This document shows positions 7,061-22,913 of a stretch of 64,000 nucleotides of DNA, piece by piece. Location: the NCBI GenBank assembly GCA_051866635.1, contig JBJDXJ010000049.1, forward strand, positions 1 to 64,000, written 5' to 3'. The position numbers and the translations under genes were made by a program. This stretch comes from Clostridia bacterium. GTDB lineage: Bacteria; Bacillota; Clostridia; UMGS1883. The notes under the pieces were generated by a model, which made no database searches, had not been told where the DNA came from, and saw nothing but the letters and a program-made list of their open reading frames with translations. Every line of letters starts with the position of its first letter. Within the stretch, counting starts at the first letter, position 1.

Positions 7061-7852
7061 TTGAATAAATATATTCCTACCGCTTTTGTAAAACTTCATG
7101 CAAAGCGAAGCATGAAGGGAAAATTCGGAACTATTTTAGCGTCCTGCCTTATTGAACTTGCAATTATTCTTGGGGTCAGTGCAATTATCATAGCTTTTAT
7201 GCCCGGTGGCTTTGAACGCTTCAGGTTAATGACTGTGGGAACATTTGACTCCCTTGAGGACCAGGTTTACTATCAGGCTAATGCTTTAAACCTTTTTTTT
7301 AATGTTATTTCTTTGGTCAGCGTGCCCTTTGCCTTCGTAACAGTGGGCAGGTTCAAAGTTGTGCTTAATGCGGTAAGGGGCAGGGAGGTATCTTGTAAAC
7401 AAGTATTCTCCTTCTACGGCAGATGGTACATTGCCTCTCTTTTCCCCCTTTTGACAATCATCTTAGGCTATGGTGTCACTTTTATACAGTCCTTCATGGA
7501 AAATGTTAAGGTAAACGATTCAATAGTGGCACTTCTTATACTTATGTGCCAATGTGTGGTTTACTTCTTATCTTATAAACTTATGTTCGTAAACAATGCC
7601 CTGGCAGACAACGACTGTAAAAACTTTATAGAAGCCGTAAAATTAAGCTGGAAAATAACCGACGGAAAAATGTTTGTAAATGTTTTGGTATTATCTCTGT
7701 CCTTTATTGGCTGGTTTATCCTTTCCATGTTCACTTTGGGACTTCTGTTTTTATATGTGATTCCATATATGGAAACATCGGTGACAACCCTTTATGACAT
7801 GGCAGTACAATTTATAAAACAAAACACTGAAAACACAACTTCAAATGAATAG
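7061..7852 (+). CDS. DUF975-family membrane protein
   Basis: LKxxAKRSMKGK start; C-terminal LSFIGWFIL...TLGL...VIPY motif. Confidence 0.75.
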   Translation: MNKYIPTAFVKLHAKRSMKGKFGTILASCLIELAIILGVSAIIIAFMPGGFERFRLMTVGTFDSLEDQVYYQANALNLFFNVISLVSVPFAFVTVGRFKVVLNAVRGREVSCKQVFSFYGRWYIASLFPLLTIILGYGVTFIQSFMENVKVNDSIVALLILMCQCVVYFLSYKLMFVNNALADNDCKNFIEAVKLSWKITDGKMFVNVLVLSLSFIGWFILSMFTLGLLFLYVIPYMETSVTTLYDMAVQFIKQNTENTTSNE

Positions 7853-8011
7853 TGAATAATGAATGATGAATAATTGATGTGAATTTACGCGTTGAAAGCG
7901 AAAATTTTCCGAAATTATTCATTTTTCATTATTAATTATTAATCGCAGATTACATTCTGCCCCCTTTTATTATGGAATGTTTAAGCTATTATTACAGAAC
8001 GGTTTCAGCTA

Positions 8012-11016: not shown

Positions 11017-11052
11017 AAAACAAACCCGACCGTAAGGTTGGGTTTGTTTTTT
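11017..11052 (+). terminator. Intrinsic terminator of the S-layer gene
   Basis: aaaacaaacccgacc-gtaa-ggttgggtttgtttt followed by T-run. Confidence 0.85.
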
Positions 11053-11087
11053 ACATTATAGGAAATTCCTCATTTTCTATAATGTAA
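11051..11087. repeat. REP-like palindrome (family A, copy 1)
   Basis: ttacattataggaaat-tcctc-attttctataatgtaa; related copies at 35388 and 43962. Confidence 0.7.
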
Positions 11088-11175: not shown

Positions 11176-11204
11176 TTGATTTTTCACACAATGTTTGATA
11201 TAAT
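11176..11204 (+). promoter_or_regulatory. Promoter of tRNA-Arg
   Basis: TTGATT-17-TATAAT, 14 nt upstream of the tRNA. Confidence 0.7.
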
Positions 11205-11218
11205 GGCAATGTATACAT

Positions 11219-11295
11219 GCGCTTGTAGCTCAGTGGATAGAGCACCGGCCTCCGACGCCGGGTTGTCGTAGGTTCGATTCCTATCAAGCGCGCCA
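11219..11295 (+). tRNA. tRNA-Arg(CCG)
   Basis: Cloverleaf: acceptor GCGCTTG/CAAGCGC, anticodon arm CCGGC-CTCCGAC-GCCGG, GGTTCGATTCC T-arm, encoded CCA. Confidence 0.95.
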
Positions 11296-11505
11296 GAAAA
11301 AACGACTTGTCGAAACAAGTCGTTTTTTCAACGAAATAAATCCTATCGGGTTTGTGAAATACCCTTCGGGCGTGAAATATTGCTATGCAATGTGAAATAC
11401 GCCTTGCGGCGTGTGGATTTATTTCATTTCACAGAAAGTGCAAACTTTTTATTTCACAATTTACGGAGTAAATTATTTCACATCAAGCTTAGCTTGATAT
11501 TTCAC
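11296..11505 (+). repeat. tRNA-fused hairpin-ladder element, full-length copy
   Basis: Terminator hairpin, then 3x GTGAAAT and 4x ATTTCAC spacers each separated by a short hairpin; homologous partial copy at 21894-22030. Confidence 0.8.
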
Positions 11506-11740
11506 TAAACAAAAATATCATTATATTTCTGCTTTCCAAAAAAATCCGTACACGATTAGTGTGTAAATTTTTTACTCATTCACTATTCTGGGAAAAATTA
11601 TTGTTTTCATTTAACAGTCAAATGAGAAAATCGAAGAAAAAACAGCAGTTTTCCCTTTACGAAAATTTATATTTATGATATACTGGTTATGAAGTTATAT
11701 TAGACAGTTATATCTATTTTTCCTCAAGGAGGGGTTATAC

Positions 11741-20245: not shown

Positions 20246-20318
20246 TTGAAAAAGTTCTTGACAAACCTCTTTTGAGGTGTTAAGATATACAAGAAGTTTT
20301 TAAAACTTCATTCCGTTT

Positions 20319-20394
20319 CCATAGACAGCGGGCATAAAGATAAGCCCCGCCGAGGAACCTATTTAAGGTTTTTAAAGGTTTTTTGCGTCTATGG
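20319..20394 (+). promoter_or_regulatory. L10 leader RNA
   Basis: ccatagacagcgggc...ccccgccgagg...gcgtctatgg, typical L10-leader architecture upstream of rplJ. Confidence 0.75.
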
Positions 20395-20438
20395 GCAAAA
20401 AACCTTTTTTTCAATATTTGGTATGGAGAGGTGATATA

Positions 20439-21026
20439 ATGCCAAGCGCAAAGATTCTCGAAGCTAAGAAGCAGGCAGTTGAAGAAATTAAGGCAACCCT
20501 CACAAAGGCTGTTGCAGGCGTTTTCGTTGACTACTGCGGTCTTACAGTTGAACAGGATACTAAGCTCCGTAACAAGCTCAGAGAAGCTAACGTAGAGTAC
20601 AAGGTTGTTAAGAACACTCTTACAAGATTTGCAGCCCAGGAAGTTGGTCTTGAAGGTCTTGACGAAATTCTTAACGGTCCCACAGCTCTCGCTATCAGCG
20701 AAACTGATGAAGTTATTGCAGCTAAGGTACTTGCTGATTTCGCAAAGGAAAATGAAGCTCTCGAAATTAAGTCCGGCTTCCTTGAAGGTAAGGTTGTTTC
20801 CGTAGACGAAGTTAAGAAGCTTGCTGACACACCCAGCCGTGAAGTTCTTATTGCTAAGTTGATGGGTAGCATGAACTCTCCCATTTCTGCTCTTGCAAGA
20901 ACATTACAGGCTCTTGTTGACAACGGTGTTGAACCCGCTGACATCAAGGTTGAAAAGGAAGAAGCTCCCGAAAATGTGGAAGCTGCTCCCGCAGAAGAAG
21001 CTACAGAAGCTCCTGCTGCTGAATAA
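20439..21026 (+). CDS. rplJ: 50S ribosomal protein L10
   Basis: DYCGLTV, KVVKNTL and GPTA; start reassigned to ATG 20439 after GGAGAGGTG. Confidence 0.97.
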   Translation: MPSAKILEAKKQAVEEIKATLTKAVAGVFVDYCGLTVEQDTKLRNKLREANVEYKVVKNTLTRFAAQEVGLEGLDEILNGPTALAISETDEVIAAKVLADFAKENEALEIKSGFLEGKVVSVDEVKKLADTPSREVLIAKLMGSMNSPISALARTLQALVDNGVEPADIKVEKEEAPENVEAAPAEEATEAPAAE

Positions 21027-21064
21027 TTGAAATTAATAAAACCATTAAATGGAGGTAAATTAAA

Positions 21065-21433
21065 ATGACAATTCAGGAAATTTTAAATGCAATTAAAGAA
21101 TTAAAGTTATTGGAAGTTGCTGAACTTGTAAAGGCAATGGAAGAAGAATTTGGCGTAAGTGCTGCTGCTCCCGTAGCTGTAGCTGTTGCAGGTGCTGACG
21201 CTGGTGCAGCTGCTGCTGAAAAGACAGAATTTGACGTTGTACTTGCTGATGCAGGTGCTGAAAAGATTAAGGTTGTTAAGGTTGTTAAGGACCTTACAGG
21301 TCTTGGTCTTAAGGAAGCTAAGGCAGCTGTTGACGGTGCTCCTACAACTCTTAAGGAAGGCATCTCTAAGGACGACGCTGAAAAGATTAAGGCTGACCTT
21401 GAAGCTGTTGGCGCAAAGGTTGAAATTAAGTAA
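21065..21433 (+). CDS. rplL: 50S ribosomal protein L7/L12
   Basis: [16 protein letters not shown] and GLGLKEAK. Confidence 0.98.
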
Positions 21434-21547
21434 TTTAACTTTTCCGTACTTAAAAGGACGAGCATTTGCTCGTCCTTTTTGAGTTGTGAGGAATATTCGT
21501 TGTGCAAAAAATTATTAATTTTCTATGGTAAATTTTCTAAAAAAAGA

Positions 21548-21576
21548 TTGACATTTGCCTTTTTATAGTGTATACT
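21548..21576 (+). promoter_or_regulatory. Promoter of tRNA-Trp
   Basis: TTGACA-17-TATACT. Confidence 0.8.
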
Positions 21577-21603
21577 AATCCAAGTGGAAAACAGAATAAA
21601 CAC

Positions 21604-21679
21604 AGGGGTATAGTTCAGTTGGTAGAATAACGGTCTCCAAAACCGCAGGTCGTGGGTTCAAGTCCTACTGCCCCTGCCA
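21604..21679 (+). tRNA. tRNA-Trp(CCA)
   Basis: Acceptor AGGGGTA/TGCCCCT, anticodon loop CTCCAAA, GGTTCAAGTCC T-arm, encoded CCA. Confidence 0.95.
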
Positions 21680-21893
21680 CAAACAAAAGCACGCTCAAAA
21701 GAGCGTGTTTTTTGTTTGTGTGTAGGTTTTAGGCAGTGGACTTGAACCCTAAGAGGGCACGAGCCGTTAAGCAAAACAGTCCGGTGGACTGTTTTGTAGG
21801 TGAGTGGTGCGTAATCAGCAGCTCGGTGCCAAGCCGAGGGCTGATAAGCAGGCAGGGCTTGCAAAGCAAGACTGTGTCCTACTGCCCCTGCCA
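21680..21893. mobile_element. 214-bp gene-less insert at the tRNA-Trp 3' end with an 18-bp att-like direct repeat
   Basis: gtcctactgcccctgcca at 21662-21679 and again at 21876-21893. Confidence 0.75.
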
Positions 21894-22030
21894 AGAAAAA
21901 AGCAGTTCGCAATGAACTGCTTTTTTCAACGATATAAATCCTATCGGATTTGTGAAATACGCTTCCCGTGTGAAATGTTGCTGTGCAACGTGAAATGTGC
22001 CTTACGGCACGTGGATTTATTTCATATCAA
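21894..22030 (+). repeat. tRNA-fused hairpin-ladder element, partial copy (right half deleted)
   Basis: Colinear with 11296-11430, with compensatory changes in the hairpins. Confidence 0.75.
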
Positions 22031-22152
22031 GCAAGGTGAGATATTCCAAACATAAAAATAGAGAAGCACTTCATTTGAGGTGCTTTTTGTATTGTAAATC
22101 ACTTGATTTTATGATATACTGTAAATACGAAAAGTTTGAGAGGGTGAGACTT

Positions 22153-22320
22153 ATGTCAACAGATAAGGCTATTGAAAATGCAATTGCTTCTGTAAAGATG
22201 GAAGGCTATCAGATTGATGGCGAATGTGTTGGATGGTGTAAAAAACTTATGGAAAAAGAAATAAGTATGGAAGAGTATATTGCCCTTGTAAAACAAAAAT
22301 CAGGTGTGATTGTTCAATGA
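22153..22320 (+). CDS. VbhA-family antitoxin of a Fic toxin
   Basis: Inhibitory motif SVKMEG ((S/T)xxxE(G/N)); ATGA overlap with the Fic gene. Confidence 0.85.
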   Translation: MSTDKAIENAIASVKMEGYQIDGECVGWCKKLMEKEISMEEYIALVKQKSGVIVQ

Positions 22321-22913
22321 GTTACAGTGTAGATTCAGTTATGGATAATTGTTATGAGGGTACAACATGCCTTGTAAACAAACTTGATATTCGTGATGAA
22401 AAACAGTTGGCGGTTATGGAATCACATATTACACTTGCCAAAATTTCAATACTTCAGCAAAATCCCATTATGGGAAATTTTGATTTTGAGCATTACAAAG
22501 CAATTCATAAATTTATATTTGAAGATTTGTATGATTGGGCAGGAGTTCCCCGAACAGTTGACATTTCCAAGAAAGGTACTTCGTTTGTGAATGCAGAAAA
22601 CATAGACGAAATAGCAACAGCTTGCTTTGAACGGCTAAAAAAACAAAACTATTTTAAAAATCTTGGTATTGATGATTTTGTTGACAATTTAACAGATTTT
22701 TATTGCGTGACAAACGCCTTGCATCCCTTCAGAGAAGGCAACGGAAGAACTCAGAGAGTCTTTCTGTCACAACTTGCACTAAACGCCGGTTATGAATTGG
22801 ATTTTTCAAATGCAGATACAGATTTCTTGATGATTGCAACTATTCAGGCGGCACATGGAATTGATGTACATTTAAAAAATGCACTTAGAAAAATCATTGC
22901 TCAAATTGAATAA
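22317..22913 (+). CDS. Fic-family (FicT/VbhT-like) AMPylase toxin
   Basis: Canonical HPFREGNGRTQR motif; IHKFIFEDLYDWAG. Confidence 0.92.
   Translation: MSYSVDSVMDNCYEGTTCLVNKLDIRDEKQLAVMESHITLAKISILQQNPIMGNFDFEHYKAIHKFIFEDLYDWAGVPRTVDISKKGTSFVNAENIDEIATACFERLKKQNYFKNLGIDDFVDNLTDFYCVTNALHPFREGNGRTQRVFLSQLALNAGYELDFSNADTDFLMIATIQAAHGIDVHLKNALRKIIAQIE

Follow-up and report, generated by a model that had tools for sequence, protein, structure and literature searches.

Gut-1 (Rfam RF01706) was published by Weinberg et al. in 2010 as an RNA from gut metagenomes, with no function given; it was graded there as a certain RNA, not cis-regulatory, "human gut only" and represented by environmental sequence only (PMC2864571). 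No function is stated in the alignment file or in the main-text passages of that paper covered by our search (PMC2864571). In the seed alignment, hairpins are linked by GUGAAAU or GUGAUAU, and the Rfam model (77 positions), typed as "Gene; sRNA," covers only the first three hairpins. Our literature search returned one further mention of Gut-1, as material for a folding benchmark, and no paper giving its function, genomic context or protein partner. Here, we analyzed a window of 64,000 nt from a Clostridia bacterium of the GTDB lineage UMGS1883 (assembly GCA_051866635.1, contig JBJDXJ010000049.1, positions 1 to 64,000, forward strand), which holds two copies of a hairpin array with constant GTGAAAT linkers, copy 1 directly behind a transfer RNA (tRNA) gene and copy 2 about 10 kb downstream. 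Both copies are Gut-1 members (69.9 and 69.5 bits) and share with the published family an origin in uncultured, gut-associated Clostridia, and the model alignment and the seed alignment both display three hairpins joined by conserved GUGAAAU-type linkers. An earlier note, made from the letters of this DNA alone, had recognized no family in the array and had named a matching Rfam family as the finding that would count against it; the element belongs to a family described in 2010, and the claim of an unrecognized class therefore fails. What appears to be new is the full two-armed unit with its long-range helix (P1), its systematic placement behind stable-RNA genes, and its link both to a broader set of heptad arrays and to genes for four-helix-bundle proteins resembling Avd, an accessory protein of diversity-generating retroelements (DGRs). 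The Rfam model lacks the fourth hairpin, P1, the inverted AUUUCAC arm and the leading terminator hairpin, and the tRNA and protein-gene contexts are likewise absent from it.

Intervening sequences (IVSs) of 23S ribosomal RNA (rRNA) lie within helices 25 or 45 and are excised from the precursor. Like the Gut-1 element, an IVS (for example, in Coxiella) is described as a small, selfish-looking insert located in the transcription unit of a stable RNA, with complementary ends, and IVSs may contain ORFs (open reading frames) of the Pfam family PF05635 (PMC4990558). The Gut-1 element differs in standing behind tRNA, RNase P RNA or 5S rRNA genes, after a terminator-like hairpin, and in being mostly devoid of an ORF; as the element lies behind tRNA genes and an Rfam scan of the window found no rRNA, we rejected its identification as an IVS. 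PF05635 proteins are also described as resembling Avd (PMC10053308), and Avd as a barrel-shaped pentamer with positive charge, "similar to S23 ribosomal proteins," that contacts a dedicated Avd-binding RNA element; in the bRT-Avd:RNA system of Bordetella phage BPP-1, a structured RNA is likewise encoded beside a PF05635-like pentameric four-helix bundle (10.1101/2023.10.23.563531). DGR RNA adopts a fold of template repeat and spacer, whereas Gut-1 RNA consists of periodic identical heptads and hairpins, and no reverse transcriptase or template/variable repeats were seen beside our arrays, no systematic search for them having been made. PF05635 genes are reported near CRISPR-Cas loci as well. 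Within the portions of the literature covered by our search, no paper tied PF05635 to Gut-1 or to heptad arrays or gave it a function outside DGRs.

The full unit is about 210 nt long and comprises an A6-hairpin-T6, four hairpins with GUGAAAU linkers (left arm), the 11-bp P1, and three hairpins with AUUUCAC linkers (right arm). Copy 1 and its surroundings (window 11176..11589, + strand) contain the following features.

11176-11204, promoter-like site TTGATT-17-TATAAT ahead of tRNA-Arg(ccg), from a promoter scan
11219..11295, + strand, tRNA-Arg(ccg), a single-gene unit with a CCA end (ARAGORN; Rfam tRNA 64.7 bits)
11296..11329, + strand, hp0, a terminator-like GAAAAAA-stem-loop-stem-TTTTTTC that begins right after the CCA of tRNA-Arg(ccg)
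11329..11403, + strand, match to the Rfam Gut-1 model, left arm only, 69.9 bits against a gathering score of 50
11333..11343, + strand, 5' strand of P1 (first linker GAAAU plus strand a), GAAATAAATCC
11338-11353, + strand, hpL1, a local alternative in which 11338-11343 pairs with 11348-11353
11354..11412, + strand, left arm, with GTGAAAT linkers at 11354, 11372 and 11392
11361-11371, 11379-11391 and 11399-11412, + strand, left-arm hairpins hpL2, hpL3 and hpL4, all three covarying
11415..11425, + strand, 3' strand of P1 at the element centre, GGATTTATTTC
11426..11505, + strand, right arm, with ATTTCAC linkers at 11426, 11451, 11475 and 11499
11433-11450, 11458-11474 and 11482-11498, + strand, right-arm hairpins hpR1 (GCAA loop), hpR2 and hpR3, with covariation
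11538..11589, + strand, second A-tract, imperfect hairpin and T-tract, followed by a heptad-like tail, TCATTCACTATTC, from sequence comparison

ARAGORN and the sequence agree with the earlier description of a hairpin set directly on the tRNA CCA end, three GTGAAAT, a central complement and four ATTTCAC: the stretch GGATTTATTTC (11415-11425) complements GAAATAAATCC (11333-11343) exactly. Read in order, the linkers are ACGAAAU, three GUGAAAU and a degenerate GUGWG, then AUUUC and four AUUUCAC. The same plan recurs in all tRNA-linked copies, which run from CCA through GAAAAAA-variable stem-TTTTTTC, (A)ACGAAAT, a hairpin and three GTGAAAT each with a hairpin to a centre, where the first hairpin's 3' strand is found again with ATTTC added, and then to three or four ATTTCAC each with a hairpin. 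Over both strands of the window, GTGAAAT occurs at 40 sites, compared with 14.2 ± 3.3 in shuffled sequence (0 of 100 shuffles reached 40), and 7 of the 40 sites are packed into 152 nt. The core stem of hp0 has 8 bp with 4 G-C pairs, set between A6 and T6; a consensus terminator scan did not list it. Flanks of the hp0 type are common to all tRNA-linked copies, with varied stems, and congeners that lack the element have unrelated terminators; hp0 travels with the element. The tract-hairpin-tail at 11538..11589, which the terminator scan did not call either, is common to the copies on contigs C12 and C4 and is a possible 3' boundary of the element.

In the genome from which the window comes (63 contigs, 2.33 Mb, 96.6% complete), eight Gut-1 matches exceeded the cutoff, and six of these had a weaker inverted partner about 20 nt downstream. 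Two more copies (contigs C52 and C38) have GCGATAT/ATATCGC in place of GTGAAAT/ATTTCAC in both arms. We then described the whole unit by a covariance model (R1, 183 positions), seeded from a MAFFT alignment (A1) that misaligned one subfamily in the left arm and was used as a seed only. R1 scored copy 1 at 196 bits on the + strand; across loci it gave 107-197 bits in the tRNA orientation versus 30-68 bits on the reverse strand, so the element is not a true palindrome and its polarity is fixed.

Covariance modeling, which the earlier note had proposed as a check, bore out the structure. Across 60 two-armed copies (hereafter, composites), 93.0% of cells were paired, compared with 66.0% after column shuffling and 35-46% with slid partners, and two-sided changes occurred in 40 of 44 pairs, among them all 13 pairs of hpL2 to hpL4. 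All hairpins covary. P1, which joins the start of the element (first linker and 5' strand of the first hairpin) to its centre, was paired in 98.3% of cells, with double changes in 7 of its 11 pairs. Independently of the model, perfect complementarity of at least 9 nt between start and centre was found in 45 of 57 composites versus 25% of mismatched-element controls, and it often extended as far as the first hairpin's loop. Hairpin hpL1, the local alternative, was 96% paired, with double changes in 6 of 6 pairs. Since P1 and hpL1 both covary, two mutually exclusive pairings of the same 5' strand are both maintained. Copies 1 and 2 also differ from each other by compensatory changes in their stems (attgc/gcaat versus gttgc/gcaac; acgcc/ggcgt versus gtgcc/ggcac), as had been noticed earlier.

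A further proposal of the earlier note, a ladder of four-way junctions formed by pairing left with right linkers, held in part. In nested register, this pairing was possible in 97.4% of cells. At l3:r2 we counted 45 GC, 6 AU, 6 GU and 2 other combinations, the six A-U being double changes, and at l2:r3 49 GC and 10 GU; registers checked at the first and last linker base revealed no clear single register. The covariation support for the ladder is thin because the linkers hardly vary. Nearest-neighbor energies placed the strict nested ladder ahead of the P1-closed fold in 8 of 10 elements and behind it in 2 of 10, and the unconstrained minimum lay below both, with shifted registers, so that energies are not decisive. 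We regard the ladder as plausible and P1 as established; the ladder cannot coexist with P1.

Two structural variants were seen alongside the composites. In the right arms of many composites (contigs C28 and C2 of the genome under study; L023, L031, L064, L095, L103, L111, L168 and L172), a conserved sequence, AUCGARC-N3-GYGAGAU, folds into a hairpin whose tandem G.A/A.G pair is flanked by covarying Watson-Crick pairs; it can stand at the first or third right-arm position. One-armed, stand-alone Gut-1 arrays with four or five linkers and no P1 (L017, L020, L028, L046, L114, L173, L175, L177-L180 and L183) have at their end a tail of Shine-Dalgarno-like sequence (GUUAAGGUGA / GUUGAGGAGG), with a terminator behind it; L178 and L179 occupy the same site after the same upstream gene in two genomes.

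The composites stand behind stable-RNA genes. Of the 10 elements in the genome under study, 7 start at the nucleotide next to a tRNA CCA end; the tRNA genes concerned, 7 out of 35, are those for Arg-ccg, Arg-cct, Leu-tag, Leu-cag, Asn, Cys and Glu. Two other elements lie behind CCA-ending copies of another structured sequence and one lies behind a protein gene. A species-wide pattern scan found a tRNA upstream of 19 of 28 two-armed copies versus 4 of 29 one-armed copies. Among the 58 composites of the set obtained with the model, 37 lay 21-44 nt behind a tRNA on the same strand, so that the terminator hairpin alone separates tRNA and array, and at least two more (L018 and L062) plainly lie behind tRNA 3' ends that ARAGORN missed. 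The tRNA adjacency noticed earlier is strong. Single composites were found behind RNase P RNA and behind 5S rRNA, and others behind protein genes. The same plan also turned up, by pattern scan, in many Clostridia metagenome-assembled genomes (MAGs) labeled Oscillospiraceae, Ruminococcaceae, Acutalibacteraceae and Christensenellaceae.

In relatives, the element is linked, both physically and phyletically, to genes of PF05635 (23S_rRNA_IVP; NCBIfam TIGR02436, "four helix bundle protein"), the ORF that recurs downstream of composites. This ORF begins 13-53 nt after the last linker in 9 of the 60 composites, once behind a second, tandem composite, and was present in 5 of the 31 composites for which 200 nt or more of flanking sequence was available. 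Among the Gut-1 matches listed (150 of 331) from 64 genomes of the family, at least 10 of 90 PF05635 matches lay 116-178 nt away. Seen from the gene, 15 of 30 PF05635 genes had an R1 match just upstream on the same strand, with strand agreement in 15 of 15. By eye, heptad arrays of at least eight linker types lie within 250 nt upstream of most of the 30 genes: composites of the types Gut-1, GCTAAAT/ATTTAGC, GTTATAT-GTGGTAT/ATACCAC-ATATCAC and ATGAAG/CTTCAT, and hairpin-free or plain arrays, either inverted (TATTCAT/ATGAATA) or tandem (AATGCAG, AATGCGG and GTAATGC). In an exact 6-mer count, 12 of the 30 upstream regions passed the 99th percentile set by 1000 upstream regions taken as controls, a conservative figure because the linkers are degenerate. 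Each linker type recurs ahead of its own clade of PF05635 genes. Gut-1 matches were present in 40 of the 64 family genomes, and PF05635 in 32 of these 40 versus 5 of the 24 Gut-1-negative genomes, counts that are not phylogenetically independent.

The single PF05635 gene of the genome under study (C58:450-818) comes after tRNA-Pro, a terminator and TATTCAT heptads in inverted arrangement. Among solved structures, the relative closest to its product is 2rld, an uncharacterized protein whose entry contains five chains (E = 1.2e-35), and a PADLOC scan of the protein returned no defense family. No PF05635 ORF was found within 600 nt after copy 1, copy 2 being outside that scan set. Hairpin-free tandem (GTGAAAT)n arrays were observed in other phyla, in a Chlorobi MAG (L038) and in Bacteroidota MAGs (L016, L019 and L032); in L038, a weak PF05635-like ORF (E = 6.8e-5) begins about 80 nt after the array.

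We next considered on which strand, and as RNA or DNA, the element acts. Relatives of the GCTAAAT class have a TTGAAA/TTGAAT-17-TAGAAT promoter, with a TG motif, that runs up to the first hairpin (hp0). Their last linker lies only about 25 nt from the start codon, and no promoter fits in between, so that the array forms the 5' untranslated region (5'UTR) in the GCUAAAU class. These relatives, in which an extended -10 promoter precedes the array and a start codon follows it, provide the best evidence that the element works as RNA. On the + strand, stem mismatches comprised 71 G.U versus 29 A.C cells (20:5 in P1, 30:13 in the left arm and 21:11 in the right arm), counted on an alignment fitted to the model, in which cells are not independent events; this model-based count supersedes an earlier regex-parsed G.T:A.C count (16:20 in the left arm and 16:6 in the right arm). 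Right-arm stems also contain 67 G.A cells on the + strand. Loop identity was less informative. Left-arm loops were C(UNC)G triloops in 142 of 188 cases, and the 144 right-arm loops included 64 triloops (the complements) and 24 GNRA loops; the loops of the two arms largely mirror each other and therefore leave the strand undecided, and an argument from UUCG tetraloops on the left and GNRA loops on the right was dropped after folding each hairpin. The promoter scan found no promoter-like site on the - strand to the right of the element, and neither the sequence nor the scan revealed a promoter between the terminator hairpin and the array in copy 1. Matches to RNA libraries amounted to a small share of words (0.05-0.08). 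For the RNA libraries X1, X2 and X6, Logan contigs cover 11213-11509, without information on strand, ends or level and with DNA as a possible source; no contig lay beyond 11205-11519, an absence to which we attach no meaning; contigs that bridge the arms are X1 record 5 (11351-11484), X2 record 13 (11373-11479) and X6 record 21 (11387-11509).

The best reading of the element remains a structured RNA or protein-binding array, as the earlier note had offered among its alternatives. More specifically, and with moderate confidence, we favor the view that copy 1 is a gene-less Gut-1 copy, a promoter-less RNA module that is read on the strand of the preceding tRNA and serves as a putative docking array for an Avd-like protein; the copies in the window are best seen as orphan derivatives of a gene-carrying module. 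In this scheme, the unit would be made as RNA by read-through from the tRNA promoter, and in gene-linked relatives this RNA would form the 5' leader of the PF05635 messenger RNA. The single-stranded heptad linkers would be putative docking sites for an oligomeric, positively charged, Avd-like four-helix bundle, and the hairpins would act as spacers of free sequence between them. The complementary right arm could zip onto the left linkers in competition with P1, such that the RNA would hide or expose the sites. Gene-less copies may be extra binding platforms or decaying, MITE-like derivatives (MITE, miniature inverted-repeat transposable element), which may have spread among the 3' flanks of stable-RNA genes. 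The docking-site reading accounts for the uniformity of linkers within an element, for the difference in linker type between subfamilies, even in one genome, and for the match between linker type and protein clade; recurrence of type with clade is also expected from simple linkage.

Several observations weigh against this scheme. Since array and gene are physically linked, the match between clade and linker is uninformative on binding. About 85% of composites have no gene behind them, and eight Gut-1-positive genomes (completeness, 76-90%) show no PF05635 gene. The genome under study has eight arrays of the GTGAAAT type and two of the GCGATAT type, and its one PF05635 gene is accompanied by an array of the TATTCAT type, so a cognate protein is not obviously present. 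The evidence for transcription comes from assembled RNA-library contigs, which are strandless, and hp0 resembles a strong terminator that would limit read-through from the tRNA. Covariation of the ladder is mixed, with a single A-U to G-C double change at l4:r1 versus six A.C mismatches at the end pair. The dependence among genomes in the co-occurrence counts and among cells in the G.U count counts on the same side.

A wider version of the favored reading, which we put forward tentatively and as clearly less probable, would make Gut-1 and the other heptad arrays the candidate cognate nucleic-acid ligands of stand-alone Avd-like pentamers. It would extend to the heptads GCUAAAU, GUUAUAU/GUGGUAU, AUGAAGU, UAUUCAU and AAUGCRG, each serving as a code for recognition that shifts from one protein paralogue to another, and the five identical heptad linkers per arm, kept apart by hairpins of arbitrary sequence, would match the five-fold protein. 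The RNA would be bistable, either P1-closed with exposed linkers or a four-way-junction ladder with buried linkers. The whole may be a small selfish or domesticated RNA-protein module that colonizes stable-RNA genes (tRNA, RNase P RNA and 5S rRNA) at their 3' ends, an extragenic counterpart of the ORF-bearing IVSs of 23S rRNA that would have left many gene-less copies behind.

The earlier note had also suggested a tRNA-targeted mobile element, and the strongest rival to a docking array is selfish DNA of the repetitive extragenic palindromic (REP), bacterial interspersed mosaic element (BIME) or MITE kind. REPs and BIMEs of enterobacteria are short extragenic palindromes that occur in many copies and form inverted clusters at the 3' ends of transcription units. 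By this account, the hairpins and constant linkers would be single-stranded DNA features recognized in trans by a transposase or recombinase, the tRNA would be a target, PF05635 would be cargo, and the inverted clusters would be BIME-like. The multi-copy, patchy and shuffled behavior of the element speaks for this explanation. Gut-1 matches reach 37-38 per genome and are distributed unevenly, in 8 of 9, 0 of 11 and 30 of 39 genomes of different genera; near-identical copies lie behind different tRNAs (C49, C4 and C12). At the orthologous tRNA-Arg(ccg) of five congeners, three had no element and unrelated terminators, one had a degenerate TCGATAT-type array and one had a GTTATAT/GTGGTAT-type array. 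A CGACTTG...CAAGTCG terminator hairpin occurs at tRNA-Arg(ccg) of congeners only alongside an array, and terminator stems are shuffled between subfamilies. Patchiness, copy number and shuffling are indirect signs of turnover or mobility. The (C)CAG retained at the 5' edge of some non-tRNA copies, as (C)CAGAAAAA (L040, L049, L065 and L154), and the mirrored loop preferences (left arm, C(UNC)G; right arm, C(GNA)G) fit as well. So does a 239-nt direct repeat (97% identical) that flanks the C58 PF05635 gene at 185-423 and 961-1199 (locus L324): it contains the last 46 nt of tRNA-Pro(ggg), the terminator and the heptad arrays, with a deleted gene remnant after the second copy, and resembles a tandem duplication or an integrase-free integration at the tRNA 3' end.

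Against selfish DNA stand the properties of the element itself. Its strands are asymmetric in R1 score, P1 and the tandem G.A pair point to one functional strand, and the array is a 5'UTR in the GCUAAAU class. Unlike REPs, which reverse the arrangement of variable hairpins and constant linkers, Gut-1 has no GTAG head and no link to a REP-associated tyrosine transposase (RAYT). The RAYT-like Y1 transposase of the genome (C38) is flanked by a different, GTAG-type REP, and Y1_Tnp was found in 29 of 40 Gut-1-positive versus 14 of 24 Gut-1-negative genomes, the eleven positives without it including one with 23 matches. We identified neither a target-site duplication nor a terminal inverted repeat; since the whole 3' flank differs between filled and element-free congeners, no clean empty site could be aligned. 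The element had no blastn match among 50,697 phage records and 72,556 plasmids, and of 80 viral-contig loci chosen by linker pattern, 3 held a composite, 2 of them at contig ends. Autonomous versions with an HUH/RAYT or recombinase gene, which had been expected for a mobile element, did not turn up as such; the gene carried is that of the Avd-like four-helix bundle instead. Multiple copies, patchiness and shuffled terminators thus remain as indirect signs of mobility, without an HUH/RAYT partner, and we consider a purely selfish DNA element unlikely.

As a separate observation, tandem GTAG-type REP-like palindromes (GGGACGTCGAGGACGCCGTCCCCTAC) lie upstream of the RAYT-like ORF at C38:210200-211100; the ORF itself holds the palindrome, and a run of N interrupts the array.

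The element could also be a protein-independent 3' cassette of stable-RNA genes, a strong bidirectional terminator with a hairpin array that acts as a fail-safe, an insulator or a barrier to 3' exonucleases. REP sequences in the 3' ends of messenger RNAs have been proposed as such barriers, and 3'ETS-leuZ of E. coli is a small RNA (sRNA) from the external spacer at a tRNA 3' end, promoter-less and riding on the tRNA unit. The Gut-1 element differs from 3'ETS-leuZ by the terminator-like hairpin between tRNA and array, and its co-transcription with the tRNA is putative. In keeping with a cassette, the element always starts at the hairpin that ends another unit (tRNA, RNase P RNA, 5S rRNA or protein gene), hp0 carries an A-tract as well as a T-tract, 21 of 60 composites have a terminator-like site on the + strand in the 130 nt downstream versus 10 of 60 on the - strand, and the genome under study shows no conserved protein neighbors. 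Such a role leaves unexplained the identity of linkers within elements and their difference between subfamilies, the complementary arms, the covariation of P1 and the tight link to PF05635, and most tRNA genes of the same genome make do with a plain terminator. We regard this cassette as a doubtful explanation, slightly more so than selfish DNA.

Two convergent Gut-1 sRNA genes, one per strand and overlapping at the centre, would explain the weak Gut-1 match of the right arm of copy 1 on the reverse strand (33.6 bits), the inverted partners at six of eight strong matches and the complementary loops of the two arms, but this arrangement is highly improbable, as no - strand promoter-like site lies beside the right arm, right-arm G.U exceeds A.C and the G.A cells occur on the + strand, the composite in its entirety reaches a far higher score as a single unit on that strand, and PF05635 genes lie on that strand in 15 of 15 loci.

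Other candidates were set aside. A CRISPR array, taken as direct repeats of about 24-48 nt with unique spacers and cas genes nearby, was rejected: the constant parts here are 7 nt, the variable parts are self-complementary hairpins, and CRISPR-DR matches reached only 14 bits. Pfam assigned no Cas family to the nearest flanking ORFs of the two window copies (4 of 4) or to three further neighboring ORFs. Resemblances of GTGAAAT/ATTTCAC to Rex/CRP half-sites, to cre boxes and to the 16S 3' end were dropped as unsupported.

With the link described here, Gut-1 and PF05635, an orphan RNA and an orphan protein family, become a testable pair. PF05635 proteins are very widespread, and the link may explain why their genes are found beside arrays that array-finding pipelines score as CRISPR-associated. 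It may also explain the upkeep of hairpin arrays behind tRNA genes in gut Clostridia and may show whether small RNA-protein elements target stable-RNA genes. If the link is mere co-transport on a mobile element, this would be a repeat family of modest interest.

Repeats of other kinds were seen around tRNA genes. In the genome under study, in the 3' flanks of at least nine other tRNA genes, at window ~7790-7900 and on contigs C26, C32 and C41, there are terminator hairpins with tandem (TATTCAC/TATTCAT/TATTAAT)n heptads behind them, and also inverted arrays, (ATGAATA)n-hairpin-(TATTCAT)n; heptads of this type also precede the only PF05635 gene of the genome. Ahead of copy 1, between the terminator of an SLH-protein gene and the tRNA-Arg promoter, lies a palindromic repeat of ~41-45 nt (window 11041-11087), which has more than 25 copies in the genome on both strands, with 85-98% identity.

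Copy 2, which the earlier note had placed after the 3' sequence of tRNA-Trp, is present with its compensatory stems but does not adjoin that gene, and most of its right arm is missing. ARAGORN puts tRNA-Trp at 21604-21679, and copy 2 begins at 21895, 215 nt further on, with an unrelated structured repeat (X) between them. Copy 2 matches Gut-1 at 21927-22001 (69.5 bits) and R1 at 21925-22076 (93.5 bits). Its features are as follows.

21895..21927, + strand, hp0 of copy 2, GAAAAAAGCAGTTCG-caa-TGAACTGCTTTTTTC, preceded by the ...CTGCCA-A of the X repeat
21927..22023, + strand, left arm and P1, with linkers at 21952, 21970 and 21990
21931-21941 and 22013-22023, + strand, the two P1 strands, with one T.T mismatch
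22024..22047, + strand, right-arm remnant, last unit only, by comparison with the copy on contig C28

X is a well-folding stretch (-79.9 kcal/mol) at window 21720-21895, with a core at 21738-21879, between the tRNA-Trp terminator and copy 2. X matched no Rfam family, and the intron mode of ARAGORN yielded nothing but a spurious tRNA. The 142-nt core is multi-copy in congeners, with 9, 5 and 4 matches in three genomes, and CCA-ending sequences like X precede composites elsewhere (L156, L189, L172, L174, L163 and L338). The gene order around copy 2 (window 20301-21679 and 22317-22913) is L10 leader, rplJ, rplL, tRNA-Trp, X and copy 2, followed by an ORF with a Fic/DOC domain that has a small ORF ahead of it.

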